DNA of 50,632 nucleotides from Escherichia coli (lineage in GTDB: Bacteria; Pseudomonadota; Gammaproteobacteria; Enterobacterales; Enterobacteriaceae). Both the position numbers and the translations under genes were made by a program. Each line of letters starts with the position of its first letter. The stretch's first letter is position 1. The notes beneath the pieces are model-generated. The model saw only the letters and a list, made by a program, of their open reading frames with translations, made no database searches and was not told the DNA's origin. Below are positions 4,019 to 50,632 of the stretch, piece after piece. Location of the stretch: the NCBI RefSeq assembly GCF_003334315.1, contig NZ_QOWR01000031.1; one strand, 5' to 3'.

Positions 4019-4128
4019 AACAGGTTCGGAAAACGTTTGCGTTTTTTTTGCCGCAGGTCAATTCCCTTTTGGTCCGAACTCGCACATAATACGCCCCCGG
4101 TTTGCACACCGGGAATCCAGGAGAGTTC

Positions 4129-5139
4129 ATGTACTACCCCTTCGTTCGTAAAGCCCTTTTCCAGCTCGATCCAGAGCGCGCTCATGAGTTTACTTTTCAG
4201 CAATTACGCCGTATTACAGGAACGCCGTTTGAAGCACTGGTGCGGCAGAAAGTGCCTGCGAAACCTGTTAACTGCATGGGCCTGACGTTTAAAAATCCGC
4301 TTGGTCTGGCAGCCGGTCTTGATAAAGACGGGGAGTGCATTGACGCGTTAGGCGCGATGGGATTTGGATCGATCGAGATCGGTACCGTCACGCCACGTCC
4401 ACAGCCAGGTAATGACAAGCCGCGTCTCTTTCGTCTGGTAGATGCCGAAGGTTTGATCAACCGTATGGGCTTTAATAATCTTGGCGTTGATAACCTCGTA
4501 GAGAACGTAAAAAAGGCCCATTATGACGGCGTCCTGGGTATTAACATCGGCAAAAATAAAGATACGCCAGTGGAGCAGGGCAAAGATGACTATCTGATTT
4601 GTATGGAAAAAATCTATGCCTATGCGGGATATATCGCCATCAATATTTCATCGCCGAATACCCCAGGATTACGCACGCTGCAATATGGTGAAGCGCTGGA
4701 TGATCTCTTAACCGCGATTAAAAATAAGCAAAATGATTTGCAAGCGATGCACCATAAATATGTGCCGATCGCAGTGAAGATCGCGCCGGATCTTTCTGAA
4801 GAAGAATTGATCCAGGTTGCCGATAGTTTAGTTCGCCATAATATTGATGGCGTTATTGCAACCAATACCACACTCGATCGTTCTCTTGTTCAGGGAATGA
4901 AAAATTGCGATCAAACCGGTGGCTTAAGTGGTCGTCCGCTTCAGTTAAAAAGCACCGAAATTATTCGCCGCTTGTCACTGGAATTAAACGGTCGCTTACC
5001 GATCATCGGTGTTGGCGGCATCGACTCGGTTATCGCTGCGCGTGAAAAGATTGCTGCGGGTGCCTCACTGGTGCAAATTTATTCTGGTTTTATTTTTAAA
5101 GGTCCGCCGCTGATTAAAGAAATCGTTACCCATATCTAA
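4129..5139 (+). CDS. pyrD: Dihydroorotate dehydrogenase (quinone), class 2
   Basis: Translation [21 protein letters not shown]... matches PyrD; ATG at 4129 preceded by SD AGGAGA. The track ORF start at 4102 is an upstream TTG extension. Confidence 0.95.
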
Positions 5140-5312: not shown

Positions 5313-5855
5313 ATGCGAATTAAACCAGACGATAACTGGCGTTGGTATTACGATGAAGAGCACGATCGAATGATGCTCGATTTAGCCAATGGTATGCTAT
5401 TTCGCTCACGTTTTGCGCGCAAGATGTTGACTCCAGATGCCTTTTCTCCCGCAGGCTTTTGCGTTGACGACGCCGCGCTCTATTTCTCTTTTGAAGAAAA
5501 GTGCCGCGATTTTAATTTATCTAAAGAACAAAAAGCCGAACTGGTGCTGAATGCACTGGTAGCAATTCGCTATCTCAAACCGCAAATGCCGAAAAGCTGG
5601 CATTTTGTTTCCCATGGTGAAATGTGGGTGCCCATGCCGGGCGATGCGGCCTGCGTTTGGTTGAGCGATACTCACGAGCAGGTCAATTTGCTGGTCGTTG
5701 AATCTGGCGAAAATGCCGCACTATGCCTGCTGGCACAACCCTGCGTTGTTATTGCGGGTCGCGCGATGCAGTTGGGCGACGCCATTAAAATCATGAACGA
5801 CAGGCTGAAACCGCAGGTTAATGTTGACAGCTTCAGCCTCGAACAGGCAGTCTAA
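5313..5855 (+). CDS. zapC: Cell division protein ZapC
   Basis: Track ORF 5277..5855 trimmed to the ATG at 5313 ([24 protein letters not shown]...), 180 aa. Confidence 0.9.
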
Positions 5856-6961
5856 CGCGCCAACTTAAGTGCAGTCTTCGGTACACAGCTACAGCAAAGA
5901 ATGGTGCCATCATCGCCCATTGCTGATTTTTTCAGCGGCGTGACTTCGCCTTCTAAAAGCTGAACACGGCAACTTCCACAAATGCCCGCGCGGCAAGAAT
6001 AAGGGATACGAATTCCCTGATTTTCTAATTGCTCCAGCAACACCTGTTGGTTATTTCCACGAAATGCCTGTCCCTGCCAGTCAATATCTACATTTGCGTC
6101 CGGTTGTTGCGTGATGTTGGCGGTATCATCAGCGGCAGCTGCGCCGTAAATTTTTGCCGGAGCCGTTGCCAGAATTTCCACCTCATCGCCAACGCGAATC
6201 ACGCCGCTATTACGGGCAATTAAATTCTGACCAAAATCGACATCGCCGTTATCCTGGGCAGTGCGGAAAGATTGCAATGTTTTTAATGGTTCGCCTGCCG
6301 GATGTTTTTGCCCTTTTTCTGGGCTGACGGTGGTGAAAATACAGCGGCTACAAGGTTTAACCACATCAAACACCACATCACCAATGCGAATCACTTTCCA
6401 GCGATCTTCTTCCCAGGCTGACGCGCCGGAAACCACCAGATTGGGGCGGAATTGCTCCATTTTTACACTGGCCGGACAACGTTGTTGGAGATCACGTAAC
6501 GAGGCTTCGTTAGCAAGAAGGTAAGGATAGCCATCAGCAAATGACAGAGGTACAGTGTTGTGGCGTTTCACGCGCCGGGTCATTTGTGGCCCCACCCAGC
6601 GTAATTGCACTTCGCGGGAGAAAAATCCACTTAGCCATTTGTTGATCGCGTCTGGCGCAATTCGCGCGGTAAAATGTGTGCCCCAAACTTCGGTTGGTGC
6701 GTCTTGTGTGGCGAAATCAGCAAAACGAACATATGCGCTACTGCCATCTGGTGCGGTGAGATGCAAGCCATCATGCACAGGTGAAGGAGTAAACCGTACC
6801 ATCTGGGGAAACTGGCGAGCGGTAATAAACGTACCGTCAGGTTCCGTGATCATAAAGATGCGATCGAAGGCCAGACCACTGACATCTGCCAGAGCATGTG
6901 TAAGACCAATGCCGCGCATCGATTTAACAGGATGAATAAAAAGCCGGATTAATGTCGCCAC
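5852..6961 (-). CDS. ycbX: MOSC-domain / 2Fe-2S ferredoxin-domain protein YcbX
   Basis: 369-aa ORF; C-terminal cysteine cluster ([11 protein letters not shown]...CCSC) typical of a plant-type ferredoxin domain. Converges on zapC with overlapping stop codons. Confidence 0.9.
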
Positions 6962-15243: not shown

Positions 15244-15260
15244 TTCTGTCTCTTTAAAAA

Positions 15261-20498: not shown

Positions 20499-21128
20499 AT
20501 GAAAAGCCTCTCCTATAAGCGGATCTATAAATCACAAGAATACCTGGCAACGTTGGGCACAATTGAATACCGATCATTGTTTGGCAGTTACAGCCTGACC
20601 GTTGACGACACGGTGTTTGCGATGGTTTCTGATGGTGAGTTGTATCTTCGGGCTTGTGAGCAAAGTGCACAGTACTGTGTAAAACATCCGCCTGTCTGGC
20701 TGACATATAAAAAGTGTGGCCGATCCGTTACCCTCAATTACTATCGGGTTGATGAAAGTCTATGGCGAAATCAACTGAAGCTGGTGCGTCTGTCGAAATA
20801 TTCTCTCGATGCAGCGCTGAAAGAGAAAAGCACGCGCAATACCCGGGAAAGACTGAAAGATTTGCCCAATATGTCTTTTCATCTGGAAGCGATTCTCGGG
20901 GAGGTGGGGATTAAGGATGTACGGGCGTTACGTATACTTGGGGCAAAAATGTGTTGGTTGCGACTGCGGCAGCAAAACAGTCTGGTGACAGAAAAGATTC
21001 TGTTTATGCTTGAAGGTGCCATTATCGGCATTCATGAAGCTGCGCTCCCGGTGGCACGCCGCCAGGAGCTTGCAGAATGGGCTGACTCTCTTACGCCGAA
21101 ACAGGAGTTTCCTGCGGAACTTGAGTAA
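20499..21128 (+). CDS. sxy: Competence regulator Sxy (TfoX)
   Basis: 209-aa ORF divergent from sulA; sequence matches Sxy/TfoX as recalled. Confidence 0.88.
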   Translation: MKSLSYKRIYKSQEYLATLGTIEYRSLFGSYSLTVDDTVFAMVSDGELYLRACEQSAQYCVKHPPVWLTYKKCGRSVTLNYYRVDESLWRNQLKLVRLSKYSLDAALKEKSTRNTRERLKDLPNMSFHLEAILGEVGIKDVRALRILGAKMCWLRLRQQNSLVTEKILFMLEGAIIGIHEAALPVARRQELAEWADSLTPKQEFPAELE

Positions 21129-23244
21129 TCTGGCGTTGCAGACGACCAATCTCAGGCAGTAATGCAATCAATAATCCAACTTGTTGTACGACCAGAGGTT
21201 CTTTGCTGTCTGCCCGTGGTTCAAGTTGCTGCATCCGCTGTTTCAGGCTAGCTAATGCCTCATTGACGCGTTCTTCATCAGCAGGTTGATGATGTAACGC
21301 GTCATCAACATAGCAAACTGCGTCATCAAGAAACGCCAGAATTTCAGGATTAGTTAACTGCTCCCGGTGAGCACCGAGGGCTGAGATATAGCTGGTAAAC
21401 GTATGGTTAAGGCACAGCAACCGAAACGCGGCTTCGCGAATTTGCGGGGTAACGTTCGGCTCGCTGGACATATTTGATACCACCGACGCCAGCTCAGCAT
21501 CACGGTTGTGTGCATCGCGGCGGGCAATACGATACGCCAGACGGTTATCACGCCCCTGATGGTATTGCTCCAGTATGGCATCGAGATACCGACAGTTGGC
21601 CTCTGTGGCGCGTTCGAGCATGCGCGGCAGATTGCGAAACTGCCAGTCAGGCCAGATGTAGCTCACTGCCGCCCACGCAATGGCACAACCAATCAGCGTA
21701 TCGATTACGCGAGGTAACGCTACTTCAAAACCTTCACCCAGTAAGTTAAAACACAGTAGCACCAAAAGTGTGATGAACATCGTTGCATGAGCGTATTGCA
21801 CGTTACGGAAGGCAAAAAAGAGCACGCCGGTAATAACCAGCAGCACCAGCTGCCCTTCCAGTGATGGCACAAACCACAGCACAGGAATGCCAATGGCGAT
21901 ACCTACCAGCGTACCAATAATCCTTAACTTCAGGCGGTGGCGCGTGGCGTTATAGTTTGGCTGGCAGACAAACAAACTTGTCAGCAAGATCCAATACCCG
22001 TGATGCATTCCGGTTATCTGAATGATGGCGTAGCCGAAGCACAACACCAGCGACATTCTTACCGCATGACGGAAGAGGGCGGATTCCGGCGTGAAGTGAC
22101 GGCTAAGACGCAGCCAGATATCACTCAACCCGTGCGGGCTGTCATCAGCGAGCTCATTTTCGTCATTATTATGGGGTAGTGCCTGGGCCTGTTCTGATTC
22201 AATTGTTGCCAGTTGGGCATCAATGGCGCGTAAATTGTTCAGCAAAAATCCCAGTGTTTTGAGTAAATCGGCGGGTGCGCCGTTATCGCGCATCCGCTCC
22301 AGCGCAGCATCAATATGCGTAAAAGCGCGCTCAAAATGCGGATCATGTTGATAAGGCTGACGCAACAAAATACAGCGTGACAGTTGCTGGCACGCCTGGC
22401 CCTGCATCGACATCAGCCGCTGAAAACGGAACAGCACGTCGCTGTGGCGAAAATGTTCACGCAATGTTTGATACTGAATATGAGAAGAGCTGGCACGCTC
22501 GTGAATATCCTGTGCGACAAAGTAATAATGCAGCGTGCGACGCGTTCCCCGTTGACCACGATCGCCACGTAAGCGGGTCAGCAGCGAGAGTTTCGTCTGA
22601 TTCAATGTCGCCATCAGCAGACCGTTGGCGAGAGCCAAATCGTACAGCGGTGCCTGGCTTTGATCTTCAATATCAGGATCAAACATGCGCGACTTGAGCT
22701 CAAGATAACGCGCCAGTTGTTCATAGCAACGCGCCAGGTTGTCCTGCAGCGGGCGGACCGGGAACAGCAGATGACCAATAAGTGTCAGGACGTTGTACCA
22801 GACGGCACCGGCCAGCAGATACATCGGCTGCTGATACCAGTGCTCATACAGTGATGTTCCCAACATAGTGTAAATGGCGATCAGCAATGCACCGAAGGCA
22901 ATTGTTGCATAGCGTTGACCCAGACCGCCGAGCAAAATGAAGCCGCTGGTAGAGAGCGTTAAGCCAATCGCAAATAGCCAGGGCCAGGGAAACAGCAATT
23001 CTACTGAGGCCGAGGCGATAAAAAAGCAGAACAGCGTAATGATGAGGTTACGCAAACGTCCCGCCAGTCGGTCATCGAGATCGGTCAGCGCCGCTGCCAC
23101 CATCCCCAGCGTTAGCGGAATCGTCAGTTTTACATCACCCAGCCACCACGGAAACGCTGTGGTTCCACAAAGCGCAATAAAAATACGCGCGTAATACAGC
23201 CAGGCGCTGTTCCAGGTATAGCGTTTGAGCAAAGGACTTAGCAT
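21091..23244 (-). CDS. yccS: Inner membrane protein YccS (putative transporter/efflux family)
   Basis: About 717 aa with two blocks of TM helices separated by a soluble region. Start may be 23253 (ATG three codons upstream); 3' end overlaps the sxy 3' end. Confidence 0.85.
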   Translation of the reverse strand: MLSPLLKRYTWNSAWLYYARIFIALCGTTAFPWWLGDVKLTIPLTLGMVAAALTDLDDRLAGRLRNLIITLFCFFIASASVELLFPWPWLFAIGLTLSTSGFILLGGLGQRYATIAFGALLIAIYTMLGTSLYEHWYQQPMYLLAGAVWYNVLTLIGHLLFPVRPLQDNLARCYEQLARYLELKSRMFDPDIEDQSQAPLYDLALANGLLMATLNQTKLSLLTRLRGDRGQRGTRRTLHYYFVAQDIHERASSSHIQYQTLREHFRHSDVLFRFQRLMSMQGQACQQLSRCILLRQPYQHDPHFERAFTHIDAALERMRDNGAPADLLKTLGFLLNNLRAIDAQLATIESEQAQALPHNNDENELADDSPHGLSDIWLRLSRHFTPESALFRHAVRMSLVLCFGYAIIQITGMHHGYWILLTSLFVCQPNYNATRHRLKLRIIGTLVGIAIGIPVLWFVPSLEGQLVLLVITGVLFFAFRNVQYAHATMFITLLVLLCFNLLGEGFEVALPRVIDTLIGCAIAWAAVSYIWPDWQFRNLPRMLERATEANCRYLDAILEQYHQGRDNRLAYRIARRDAHNRDAELASVVSNMSSEPNVTPQIREAAFRLLCLNHTFTSYISALGAHREQLTNPEILAFLDDAVCYVDDALHHQPADEERVNEALASLKQRMQQLEPRADSKEPLVVQQVGLLIALLPEIGRLQRQITQVPQETPVSA

Positions 23245-23262
23245 AAAGGCCATATTAGTGGA

Positions 23263-28139: not shown

Positions 28140-29330
28140 TTACATGACGCGACAGGCAAACCCTTTCAGATATAGCCCTTCCGGATAGGTAGCGATCACC
28201 GGATGATCGGCTGCCTGACGGAACTGCTCTATAAATTGTACATCACGACCGGCATCAATTGCGGCATCCGCGATGATTTTCTGAAATAAATCGCTGGTCA
28301 TCAGACCGGAACAGGAGAAAGTCAGGAGAATACCGCCTTCATTCAGCAGCTGAATCGCCAGCATGTTGATGTCTTTATAACCACGACACGCGCCCATCAA
28401 CTGGCTTTTATTCTCAACAAACTTCGGCGGGTCCATCACGATAACGTCAAATTTTTCACCGCGATCGCGATAAGTACGCAGCAATTTAAAGACATCATCA
28501 CGGACAAACTCAGCCTTGCTCAGATCCAGTTTGTTCAGCTCAACGTTCTGCCGTGCAATATCCAGCGCTTCCTGGGAGGTATCAACGCTGACAACCTGGC
28601 TGCAACCGCCCATCAGTGCCGATACGGCGAAACCACCGGTATAGGAGAAACAGTTCAGCACACGTTTATTTTCAACGTAGCGGCGGGTAGCCAGGCGGCT
28701 ATCACGCTGGTCCAGGTAGTAGCCCGTTTTGTGTCCGTGCTGAATATCCACCAGCAGTTTCATTCCGTGTTCTTCAATCGGCAGCAGGGCAGGTGGCAAC
28801 TCGCCGGTGACGGGGCCCTGGGTCAGCTCCATTCCTTCTTTTTTACGTACCGCGACGTCGCTGCGATCGTAAATCGAACATTCCGGGTACAGCGTTTGCA
28901 GGGCACTAATTAATGCCGCGCGCTGATATTCTGCCCCAGCACTCAGCAGTTGCAGCACCAGAAAATTACCGAAACGATCGATAGTAATACCCGGCAGGCC
29001 ATCAGATTCTCCGGCGATTAAACGATAGCTGTCGAGGCCATCTTTTTGCGCCAGCCAGTCACGCCATTTTTGTGCTTGTTGCAAACGGCGGGAAAAAAAA
29101 GCAATGTCGATAGACTCAGACGGGTCAAACGTCCAGACGCGCGCCCGGATTTGCGAAGCTGGCGAATAAGCGCCGCGTGCTAACCATTTTCCCTGATGAT
29201 CAACAATATCGATGGTTTCACCGAGGCTGGCTTTACCTTCCATGCGGGCAACGGCCCCGGAAAAGACCCACGGATGGCGACGAAGTAATGATTTTTCGCG
29301 CCCTTTGGCTAACACTAAACGTACACTCAT
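28140..29330 (-). CDS. rlmI: 23S rRNA m5C1962 methyltransferase RlmI
   Basis: 396-aa [30 protein letters not shown]... with PUA-like N-terminus and SAM-MTase core. Confidence 0.92.
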
Positions 29331-29424
29331 AATTTACTTTTCTGTCGATGCAAAGAAATGGGCGTCATTGTCCGGAGTTTTCCATGGATTTGCAACGCGT
29401 CCATTAAGGATAAGGAGAGCAGCA

Positions 29425-29703
29425 ATGTCGAAAGTCTGCATAATTGCCTGGGTTTACGGGCGAGTTCAGGGCGTAGGATTTCGCTACACCACACAGTACG
29501 AAGCGAAAAGACTGGGTTTAACCGGGTACGCCAAAAATCTTGACGATGGCAGCGTGGAAGTGGTTGCTTGCGGTGAAGAAGGGCAGGTGGAAAAATTAAT
29601 GCAGTGGTTAAAGAGTGGCGGCCCGCGTTCTGCGCGTGTAGAACGGGTGCTCAGCGAGCCGCATCATCCCTCGGGGGAATTAACCGATTTTCGTATCCGT
29701 TAA
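29425..29703 (+). CDS. yccX: Acylphosphatase
   Basis: ATG at 29425; 92 aa with acylphosphatase signature [11 protein letters not shown]. The track ORF 29212..29703 is a long upstream extension. Confidence 0.9.
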
Positions 29704-30029
29704 ATACATTTTACCGGTTTTGGCAGGCCAGCAATTTTGGTGGCTTGCTTAGCCGGACCTTTCGGAAACAGTCGGTATAAATAGCGGCTGTTACCTTTTT
29801 CTTCGCCAAATTTATTCGCCATCGCTTTTACCAGCATACGAATCGCCGGAGAAGTATTGAATTCCAGATAGAAATCACGCACAAAACGCACCACTTCCCA
29901 GTGTTCCGGTGACAGCGAAATCCCTTCGTTCTCTGCAATCACCACAGCCAGCGGCTCACTCCACTGGCTGCTTTCTTTGAGATAGCCTTCGGTATCCGTT
30001 TCTATCTCTTTACCTTCGAAGATCAGCAT
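29700..30029 (-). CDS. tusE: Sulfurtransferase TusE (DsrC-like)
   Basis: Track ORF trimmed to the ATG at 30029 ([23 protein letters not shown]...); conserved C-terminal Cys (…PVKCI); 109 aa. Confidence 0.9.
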
Positions 30030-30119
30030 AATTATTACTACCTTAATCAGACTGGCGGCAGTGTAACAAAAAACAAAGCCCCGCATAAAGCGAGGCTATG
30101 AAAGTGTTAGCGGGTGAGA

Positions 30120-30779
30120 TTAATCGCGGCTAGCGAAGCCCAGAATGCTCAGCAGGCTGACGAAGATGTTGTACAGCGAAACATACAGGCTAACCGTGGC
30201 ACGAATATAGTTCGTCTCACCGCCATGAATGATGTTGCTGGTTTCAAACAAGATAGCGCCAGAGGAGATCAGAATGAAGACCGCGCTGATCGCCAGATGC
30301 AGAGCAGGCAGCTGCAGGAAGATATTCGCAACCATACCAATCAGCACCACCACAATACCCGCCATCAGCATACCGCCGAGGAACGACATATCTTTGCGGG
30401 TGGTCAGCACATATGCAGAGCAGCAGAAGAACACTAACGCCGTTCCGCCCAGTGCCATAGCGATTACGTCACCCATTCCGGCAGACAGATAGGTGTTCAG
30501 AATAGGTCCGAGGATATAACCCAGAAAACCGGTAAAGGCGAATGCGGAGATAATCCCGGTCGGCTTATTCGCCGTTTTATAGGTCAGGAACATCAAACCA
30601 TACATACCCACCAGCGTCAGAATCAGACCCGGAGATGGCAGCATCAGCACCGTACTGGCAGTTGCGGTAATCGCCGAAAAGGCCAGCGTCAGGCTCAGAA
30701 GAAAATAGGTATTACGCAGCACCTTATGGGTGCTAAGCAGTGATGTACGGTCATGTGAAGAACTAACAATACGATCCAT
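30120..30779 (-). CDS. yccA: BAX-inhibitor family inner membrane protein YccA (FtsH modulator)
   Basis: 219 aa, 7 predicted TM helices; sequence matches YccA as recalled. Confidence 0.92.
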
Positions 30780-30985: not shown

Positions 30986-31073
30986 TGGCGGAAGCGCAGA
31001 GATTCGAACTCTGGAACCCTTTCGGGTCGCCGGTTTTCAAGACCGGTGCCTTCAACCGCTCGGCCACACTTCC
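30986..31073 (-). tRNA. serT: tRNA-Ser (anticodon UGA)
   Basis: Minus strand reads GGAAGTGTGGCCGAGCGGTTGAAGGCACCGGTCTTGAAAACCGGCGACCCGAAAGGGTTCCAGAGTTCGAATCTCTGCGCTTCCGCCA: 88 nt with long variable arm, TGA anticodon, T-loop GGTTCGAATCC-type and encoded CCA. Confidence 0.95.
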
Positions 31074-49759: not shown

Positions 49760-50044
49760 ACAAATTCCTTACTGAAAATACTGCGCTGCACTATACGGGG
49801 TTAATAAAATAAAGCCAGCGATATTTAAGACCGCCGGACGGCTAAAATAAAATTTGCTTAATCTCAATTATCATGCGTTAATAGCTGCGTCGGTTTGAAA
49901 GACAGACAGCATACAAAGTAGTTTACTAAAGCAGTTCTCATTATCAGGCATTATCCCCTTCTTTTGAGTCTCTCTCCTGAACACTAAGTAGTTTCTGTAT
50001 TAAAGCCCTGTTTGCCGAAAGGCCCAAAATGAAGGAAGTAAAAT

Positions 50045-50179
50045 ATGTCTAATAAAATGACTGGTTTAGTAAAATGGTTTAACGCAGATAAAGGTTTTGG
50101 CTTTATCACTCCTGATGATGGCAGCAAAGACGTTTTCGTCCATTTCACTGCCATCCAGAGCAATGAATTCCGCACGCTG
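50045..50179 (+). pseudogene. cspG: Cold-shock protein CspG, N-terminal 45 codons only; truncated by IS1 at 50179/50180
   Basis: Translation [45 protein letters not shown] matches the CspG N-terminus (RNP1 KGFGFI, RNP2 VFVHF). The reading frame then runs into the IS1 inverted repeat (track ORF 50045..50260); the expected C-terminal ~25 aa are missing. Confidence 0.88.
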
Positions 50180-50632
50180 GGTAATGACTCCAACTTATTG
50201 ATAGTGTTTTATGTTCAGATAATGCCCGATGACTTTGTCATGCAGCTCCACCGATTTTGAGAACGACAGCGACTTCCGTCCCAGCCGTGCCAGGTGCTGC
50301 CTCAGATTCAGGTTATGCCGCTCAATTCGCTGCGTATATCGCTTGCTGATTACGTGCAGCTTTCCCTTCAGGCGGGATTCATACAGCGGCCAGCCATCCG
50401 TCATCCATATCACCACGTCAAAGGGTGACAGCAGGCTCATAAGACGCCCCAGCGTCGCCATAGTGCGTTCACCGAATACGTGCGCAACAACCGTCTTCCG
50501 GAGACTGTCATACGCGTAAAACAGCCAGCGCTGGCGCGATTTAGCCCCGACATAGCCCCACTGTTCGTCCATTTCCGCGCAGACGATGACGTCACTGCCC
50601 GGCTGTATGCGCGAGGTTACCGACTGCGGCCT
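50180..50632 (-). mobile_element. IS1 insertion sequence, partial (IRR-proximal 453 bp; rest lies right of the window)
   Basis: 50180 onward reads GGTAATGACTCCAACTTATTGATAGTG..., the reverse complement of the IS1 right end as I recall it, continuing as antisense insB to the window edge. Confidence 0.93.
50195..50632 (-). CDS. insB: IS1 transposase InsB region (C-terminal part; 5' end beyond window)
   Basis: Minus-strand translation ...[68 protein letters not shown]...[15 protein letters not shown] with stop at 50195..50197. Confidence 0.92.

Follow-up and report, generated by a model that had tools for sequence, protein, structure and literature searches.

How do two genes whose coding sequences run into each other tail to tail bring their transcripts to an end, and is such an interlock kept for a purpose or merely tolerated? 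The question is raised by two gene pairs, yccX/tusE and zapC/ycbX, in the 50,632-nt stretch of Escherichia coli DNA analysed here (contig NZ_QOWR01000031.1 of assembly GCF_003334315.1; hereafter the window). The window was aligned to positions 1,000,640-1,051,271 of the E. coli MG1655 chromosome (NC_000913.3), such that a window position equals the MG1655 position minus 1,000,639.

The yccX gene, encoding an acylphosphatase of 92 aa, lies on the plus strand at 29425-29703 and ends in a TAA codon at 29701-29703. The tusE gene, encoding the 109-aa sulfurtransferase TusE, lies on the minus strand at 29700-30029, and its TAA stop codon is the reverse complement of 29700-29702. Both stops are held by a single tetranucleotide, TTAA, at 29700-29703, where the plus strand reads CGT ATC CGT TAA. 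The region around the junction is 100% identical to that of E. coli K-12 and was matched in all 5,426 complete E. coli genomes. The open reading frames and the RefSeq annotation of MG1655 are in agreement for both genes (yccX, 1030064-1030342; tusE, 1030339-1030668), and NCBIfam equivalog models cover YccX (NF011000, 170.6 bits) and TusE (NF008562, 243.7 bits) end to end. In the second pair, zapC (plus strand, 5313-5855) stops at a TAA at 5853-5855, and ycbX (minus strand, 5852-6961), which encodes a MOSC/2Fe-2S protein, stops at a TAG that is the reverse complement of 5852-5854; here the tetranucleotide holding both stops is CTAA at 5852-5855. These calls likewise follow from the sequence and from RefSeq (zapC, 1005952-1006494; ycbX, 1006491-1007600), and orthologues of the two proteins carry the Pfam domains ZapC_N and ZapC_C, and MOSC_N, MOSC and Fer2, respectively. 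The geometry of the two junctions is identical, with a coding overlap of 4 nt in which 2 nt are common to the two stop codons. A preliminary description of this DNA had placed the yccX and tusE stops on TTAA with a 4-nt overlap, which sequence and annotation bear out. It had also located the zapC/ycbX stop overlap correctly at 5852-5855 and given its extent as 2 nt; the coding sequences overlap by 4 nt, a matter of inconsistent counting only.

A TAA or TAG stop codon that follows a pyrimidine forms a YTAR tetranucleotide, which, read on the other strand, holds a second stop codon shifted by one base. Because YTAR is a stop on both strands, a convergent gene read in that frame ends exactly there and the two coding sequences overlap by 4 nt. 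The four members of this class (CTAA, TTAA, CTAG and TTAG) were named as convergent stop-stop tetramers by Lillo & Krakauer 2007 (PMC2174442), who counted 1,890 convergent overlaps in 58 prokaryotes, 1,218 of them of at least 5 nt and 672 of at most 4 nt, with 58 convergent overlaps in E. coli. The same study pointed out that the terminators of such genes must sit within the coding sequence of the partner, and reported Rho-independent terminators predicted inside the partner for approximately 20% of the E. coli genes that take part in such overlaps. Further accounts of this type of overlap cited in that study are Rogozin 2002, Fukuda 2003 and Johnson & Chisholm 2004. Both pairs in the window belong to this class, being genuine tail-to-tail genes with the tetramer in place and the arrangement found at the orthologous positions; in geometry and tetramers they are identical to the published class, with no difference in kind. 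Both junctions are therefore of the expected modal class of convergent overlap, which is a common arrangement.

With no intergenic DNA between interlocked stops, any complete mRNA of either gene includes sequence antisense to its neighbor. Transcript 3' ends and Rho-dependent regions were taken from the Term-seq and bicyclomycin (BCM) data of Adams et al. 2021 (PMC7815308; supplementary files 1 and 2). In that study, a tusE 3' end was mapped to MG1655 position 1030253 on the minus strand in LB at OD 0.4, with 60,381 reads, and to 1030252 (minus) in M63. These correspond to window positions 29614 and 29613, and the former is located 86 nt past the tusE stop, inside yccX. The tusE 3' UTR (29614-29699, minus strand) accordingly runs antisense to the final 32% of the yccX coding sequence. 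For zapC, a Term-seq end supported by 937 reads was reported at MG1655 1006586 on the plus strand (PMC7815308), which places the zapC 3' UTR at 5856-5947 (plus strand), antisense to the 3' end of ycbX and ending 92 nt past the zapC stop.

Beyond these ends, the BCM data register read-through in both directions at the zapC/ycbX junction (PMC7815308). Read-through from zapC ends in a Rho-dependent termination region at 5948-6008 on the plus strand, whose peak at 6008 (MG1655 1006647, plus) is 153 nt past the stop (Rho score 7.24, p = 1.1e-24). Read-through from ycbX crosses 5851-5401 on the minus strand to a Rho-dependent region with its peak at 5401 (MG1655 1006040, minus; Rho score 4.34, p = 7.4e-8), by which point the transcript has run 451 nt beyond the ycbX stop and crossed almost all of zapC. 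The published data thus identify Rho-dependent termination, in the sense that BCM raises read-through, for zapC and for ycbX. In the 800-nt-window test of Adams et al. 2021, neither tusE nor yccX was assigned a Rho region, although this test is blind for tusE because rlmI adjoins downstream on the same strand and masks it. The same Term-seq data list no 3' end for yccX (PMC7815308), and both absences count against the reading favored below.

The expectation in the preliminary description that transcripts must extend antisense into the neighboring gene is consequently upheld for three of the four genes (tusE, zapC and ycbX) by published Term-seq and BCM data, with yccX having no listed end. The opposite outcome, 3' ends lying in the coding regions upstream of the overlaps, was not seen, as no curated ends fall within MG1655 1030300-1030399 or 1006400-1006499 (PMC7815308). 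A consensus scan for intrinsic terminators gave no canonical terminator directly downstream of any of the four stop codons, and an Rfam scan of the whole window gave no match at either junction. The accompanying statement that terminators have no room is right for the intergenic space and fails in a wider sense, since the ends are set by signals within the coding sequence of the partner.

At both mapped ends that signal appears to be an RNA stem. The tusE-sense RNA is predicted to fold into a GC-rich stem-loop at 29618-29662 (minus strand; -20.3 kcal/mol, z = -1.6), and the zapC-sense RNA forms a predicted stem at 5910-5943 (plus strand; -14.2 kcal/mol, z = -2.7). The mapped ends, 29614 for tusE and 5947 for zapC, are each located exactly 4 nt 3' of the stem-loop. 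Across species, the tusE stem retains five of its nine outer pairs, its inner stem is not conserved, and 55% of the cells in the alignment are paired. Adams et al. (PMC7815308) noted that Rho-terminated RNAs are trimmed by 3'-5' exonucleases. Because both ends fall 4 nt 3' of a stem-loop, we infer that the tusE and zapC transcripts are trimmed in this way to the nearest stable stem. The zapC/ycbX pair is like the systems described by Adams et al. 2021 (PMC7815308) and Dar & Sorek 2018 (PMC6061677) in that it combines BCM-sensitive read-through with stable ends just 3' of stem-loops. It should be noted that the Rho part of this likeness comes from zapC/ycbX and not from tusE/yccX, and that the trimming part is deduced from the position of the ends.

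Taken together, these data favor the reading, to which we assign a probability of roughly 75%, that the interlocked stops are a tolerated product of genome compaction, with read-through of each transcript into the partner, termination by Rho and 3' ends at stems encoded by the partner's protein sequence. According to this model, a YTAR stop came to be shared when a convergent gene in the appropriate frame ended there, giving the 4-nt overlap. Once formed, the junction would be frozen, because any insertion or deletion alters both C-termini and the central TA is needed twice; only the outer bases could change, exchanging TAA and TAG. Both C-termini are probably under constraint at these junctions. 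In TusE, the cysteine at position 108 of 109 is presumably the sulfur-accepting residue, as established for TusE/DsrC proteins. Each RNA polymerase would then transcribe antisense into the partner because there is no intergenic DNA, and the RNA would be untranslated once the ribosome leaves at the stop codon. Rho would end such untranslated RNA within approximately 150-450 nt, as BCM sensitivity shows for zapC and ycbX, and exonucleases would then shorten it as far as the nearest stable stem. The outcome is an antisense 3' UTR of 86-92 nt on each mapped transcript. Regulatory cross-talk between the partners is possible within this model.

The conservation of the two junctions was compared with this model. 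In a set of 80 Enterobacteriaceae loci, yccX was convergent to tusE in every case, and the coding overlap was exactly 4 nt in 78 of the 80 species. All four YTAR forms are used (TTAA in 49, CTAA in 12, TTAG in 11 and CTAG in 8), so that the stops toggle between TAA and TAG with the geometry fixed, though YccX identity falls to 60-80%. Both exceptions are small insertions: Entomohabitans has TAATCA, with a gap of 0, and Cedecea colo has a 7-nt tandem duplication, TATTTAG, with a gap of 3. The 4-nt zapC/ycbX overlap is kept, as TTAA or TTAG, in seven of eight other genera (Salmonella, Klebsiella, Citrobacter, Enterobacter, Cronobacter, Cedecea and Kosakonia). In the eighth, Siccibacter, zapC ends in TGA, which is unable to interlock, and zapC and ycbX are 4 nt apart. 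The sites where the interlock has been undone lie at approximately position 1830 of the fetched loci L054 and L057 and at 2043-2048 of L088. Small insertions and a switch to TGA were thus the only routes of separation seen, and the occurrence of separation in rare lineages indicates that it is possible and not lethal. This pattern is what a frozen junction would predict, and selection for antisense regulation would not be required. Selection for antisense cross-talk, rather than constraint, could also account for an overlap this strongly conserved.

An alternative built on that possibility is that each pair is a functional convergent excludon, in which overlapping 3' UTRs are selected and the partners repress each other through head-on RNA polymerase interference, RNase III cleavage of the 86-92 bp duplex, or both; reciprocal expression of tusE and yccX, and of zapC and ycbX, would be predicted. 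The zapC-ycbX, sxy-yccS and yccX-tusE pairs are all among the 165 E. coli convergent excludons reported with ExcludonFinder (PMC12288877), convergent transcript overlaps found in at least 50% of 58 RNA-seq samples. That both transcripts extend into each other is evident from the Term-seq and BCM data for tusE, zapC and ycbX and from this coverage-based listing of the pairs. However, a coding overlap satisfies the ExcludonFinder definition automatically if both genes are expressed. The top list of a RyhB MAPS pull-down contains both yccX and tusE (PMC7154689), a co-purification that Georg et al. 2019 (PMC7154689) ascribed to a duplex of the overlapping UTRs. The extent to which the tusE 3' UTR covers yccX and the very strong conservation of the geometry also speak for an excludon, although constraint alone explains the latter, as indels would damage two proteins, and although two lineages have split yccX/tusE and one has split zapC/ycbX with neither gene lost. 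The partners have no evident functional link, and the literature searched yielded no reciprocal-expression or RNase III data for these pairs. A classical excludon is characterized by mutually exclusive expression through interference or RNase III, and the two pairs resemble it in transcript overlap only. Moreover, their overlap is forced by the geometry of the coding sequences, whereas that of a classical excludon arises from a long regulated UTR. On balance, we consider it unlikely that either pair is a functional excludon. Were they regulatory excludons, tRNA thiolation or cell division would be linked to unrelated neighbors, a proposition that is moderately interesting and currently unsupported.

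A second alternative holds that intrinsic terminators with a dual coding role have been selected inside the partner's coding sequence, namely, for yccX, a hairpin with its U-run (29764-29803) and, for tusE, the stem located at 29618-29662. The frequency of predicted terminators of this type among E. coli convergent overlaps, given above, lends it some general credence, as does the structure of the yccX-sense RNA, which just past the stop folds far better than shuffled sequences (z = -3.6). Two predicted hairpins account for this segment, both antisense to the tusE coding sequence. The first, H1 (29714-29756, plus strand), has a folding energy of -27.7 kcal/mol (z = -4.5), as against -15.6 kcal/mol (z = -1.2) on the opposite strand. 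The second, H2 (29764-29795, plus strand), has -14.4 kcal/mol (z = -3.3), as against -7.3 kcal/mol (z = -0.8), and is followed directly by UUUUUCUU at 29796-29803, making it a terminator-like candidate for yccX. The covariation set consisted of the 80 Enterobacteriaceae tusE loci fetched, for a total of 81 aligned sequences with no gaps in the alignment. In 74 of the 81, H1 folded more stably as yccX-sense RNA.

The same alignment argues against selection for the hairpins as RNA. Among the 81 sequences, none of the 29 pairs displayed compensatory changes, the paired fraction of 86.9% equaled the 87.0% mean of column shuffles, and RNAalifold gave a covariation term of -0.14. Pairing is attributable to first and second codon positions that do not vary in the conserved C-terminal part of TusE. 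In most species the U-run after H2 is interrupted (TTTCTCTT), and no Term-seq end lies within MG1655 1030400-1030499 in three conditions (PMC7815308). The hairpins were accordingly rejected as a selected embedded terminator. They are best read as by-products of the TusE protein sequence, and at most as an opportunistic terminator candidate; a conserved protein sequence is evidently able to mimic a conserved RNA structure, and this calls for caution. The tusE stem fares little better as a selected terminator, given its incomplete pairing across species, the lack of a proper U-tract and an empty consensus scan at that position. It could nevertheless be a weak intrinsic terminator, as CACUCUUUAA follows it, and this is a point against the compaction model. 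Selected terminators within the partner genes are thus a doubtful explanation of the two junctions.

Termination driven by collision was also considered, in which converging RNA polymerases would meet head-on near the junction and nascent stem-loops would set the place of collision and the 3' ends. Wang et al. (bioRxiv 10.1101/2022.10.23.513370) described the ending of convergent pairs by head-on and trailing co-directional collisions with a requirement for a nascent stem-loop, and the stems 4 nt upstream of both mapped ends would be consistent with this. Their model, however, derives from bidirectional terminator elements in intergenic DNA, and neither of our junctions has one. The genes also appear weakly expressed, as exemplified by the low Term-seq read count of zapC, and collisions should therefore be rare, while the BCM-sensitive read-through of zapC and ycbX implicates Rho. 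Neither yccX/tusE nor zapC/ycbX has a bidirectional intrinsic terminator, as the mapped ends of the partners lie at no common hairpin, which also counts against collision. We regard a collision mechanism as quite improbable here.

The difference from a bidirectional intrinsic terminator can be seen within the window itself, where the reference annotation has eight convergent junctions, three of them overlapping. At rmf/fabA, Term-seq 3' ends on both strands, at window positions 15258 and 15288 (MG1655 1015897, minus, and 1015927, plus), surround one GC hairpin, GAAACCTCCGCAATGCGGAGGTTTC. Here a bidirectional intrinsic terminator of the classic type answers the same need as in the overlapping pairs, the ending of two converging transcripts. 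It does so with one hairpin in a 69-nt gap, whereas yccX/tusE and zapC/ycbX have neither intergenic DNA nor such a hairpin. The other spaced junctions are matP/ompA (gap of 75 nt), helD/mgsA (31 nt), yccU/hspQ (44 nt) and appA/etk (114 nt). In addition to the two 4-nt overlaps, the sxy (20499-21128, plus strand) and yccS (21091-23253, minus strand) coding sequences overlap by 38 nt at 21091-21128. This third convergent overlap was missed in the preliminary description and is present in the published E. coli excludon list (PMC12288877).

A more specific proposal is that selection for antisense coupling, and not constraint only, keeps the 4-nt interlock in the Enterobacteriaceae. The 86-nt tusE 3' UTR, abundant in Term-seq, would pair with the last third of the yccX mRNA, so that acylphosphatase expression would run inverse to that of the tRNA-thiolation gene, zapC would likewise oppose ycbX, and the protein-encoded stems would double as elements that define the 3' ends. 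We hold this to be highly unlikely. Finally, an annotation artefact, in which each pair would contain a wrongly called gene or a gene whose true stop is elsewhere, is rejected as having next to no likelihood, since it can draw only on the general frequency of mis-annotated overlaps (PMC2478687), which concerns overlaps of more than 60 nt, whereas stop codons, unlike starts, are unambiguous, curated families match all four proteins along their entire length, and in dozens of genera the orthologues stop at the same place.

The interlocked pairs are real, ordinary and already known, the class, its frequency and its terminator problem having been described in 2007, 3' ends or Rho regions for three of the four genes in 2021 and the excludon listing in 2025. 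Our additions, the conservation of two pairs at the level of lineages and a negative covariation result, are minor. The junctions illustrate a textbook consequence of compaction, in which antisense 3' UTRs are forced and termination signals come to lie within the neighbor's coding sequence; as such they are clean examples that offer little beyond bookkeeping and open no new question.

Several features surround the yccX/tusE junction. An intrinsic terminator of yccA is located at 30071-30097 on the minus strand, with its stem at 30077-30097 and Term-seq ends at MG1655 1030711 and 1030710, approximately 43 nt upstream of the tusE start codon (30029). With this terminator so close upstream, transcription of tusE would have to come either from polymerases that read through it or from a promoter within or immediately after yccA. 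In LB, Term-seq reads at the tusE 3' end number about one quarter of those at the yccA end. Within 28140-30779, yccX is a single plus-strand gene between the minus-strand genes yccA-tusE and rlmI, and read-through from tusE would cross yccX antisense and enter rlmI, a layout like that of a noncontiguous operon. The arrangement tusE-[yccX]-rlmI fits such an operon, yet a strong tusE-sense 3' end lies inside yccX, and tusE-yccX-rlmI is absent from the three noncontiguous operons reported for E. coli (PMC12288877). Elsewhere in the window, the Rfam scan identified, at the gathering threshold, the PyrD leader upstream of pyrD (4061-4134, plus strand), tRNA-Ser (serT; 30989-31073, minus strand) and, near the right end of the window and just past IS1D, a cspA-type thermoregulator 5' UTR (49889-50209, plus strand).
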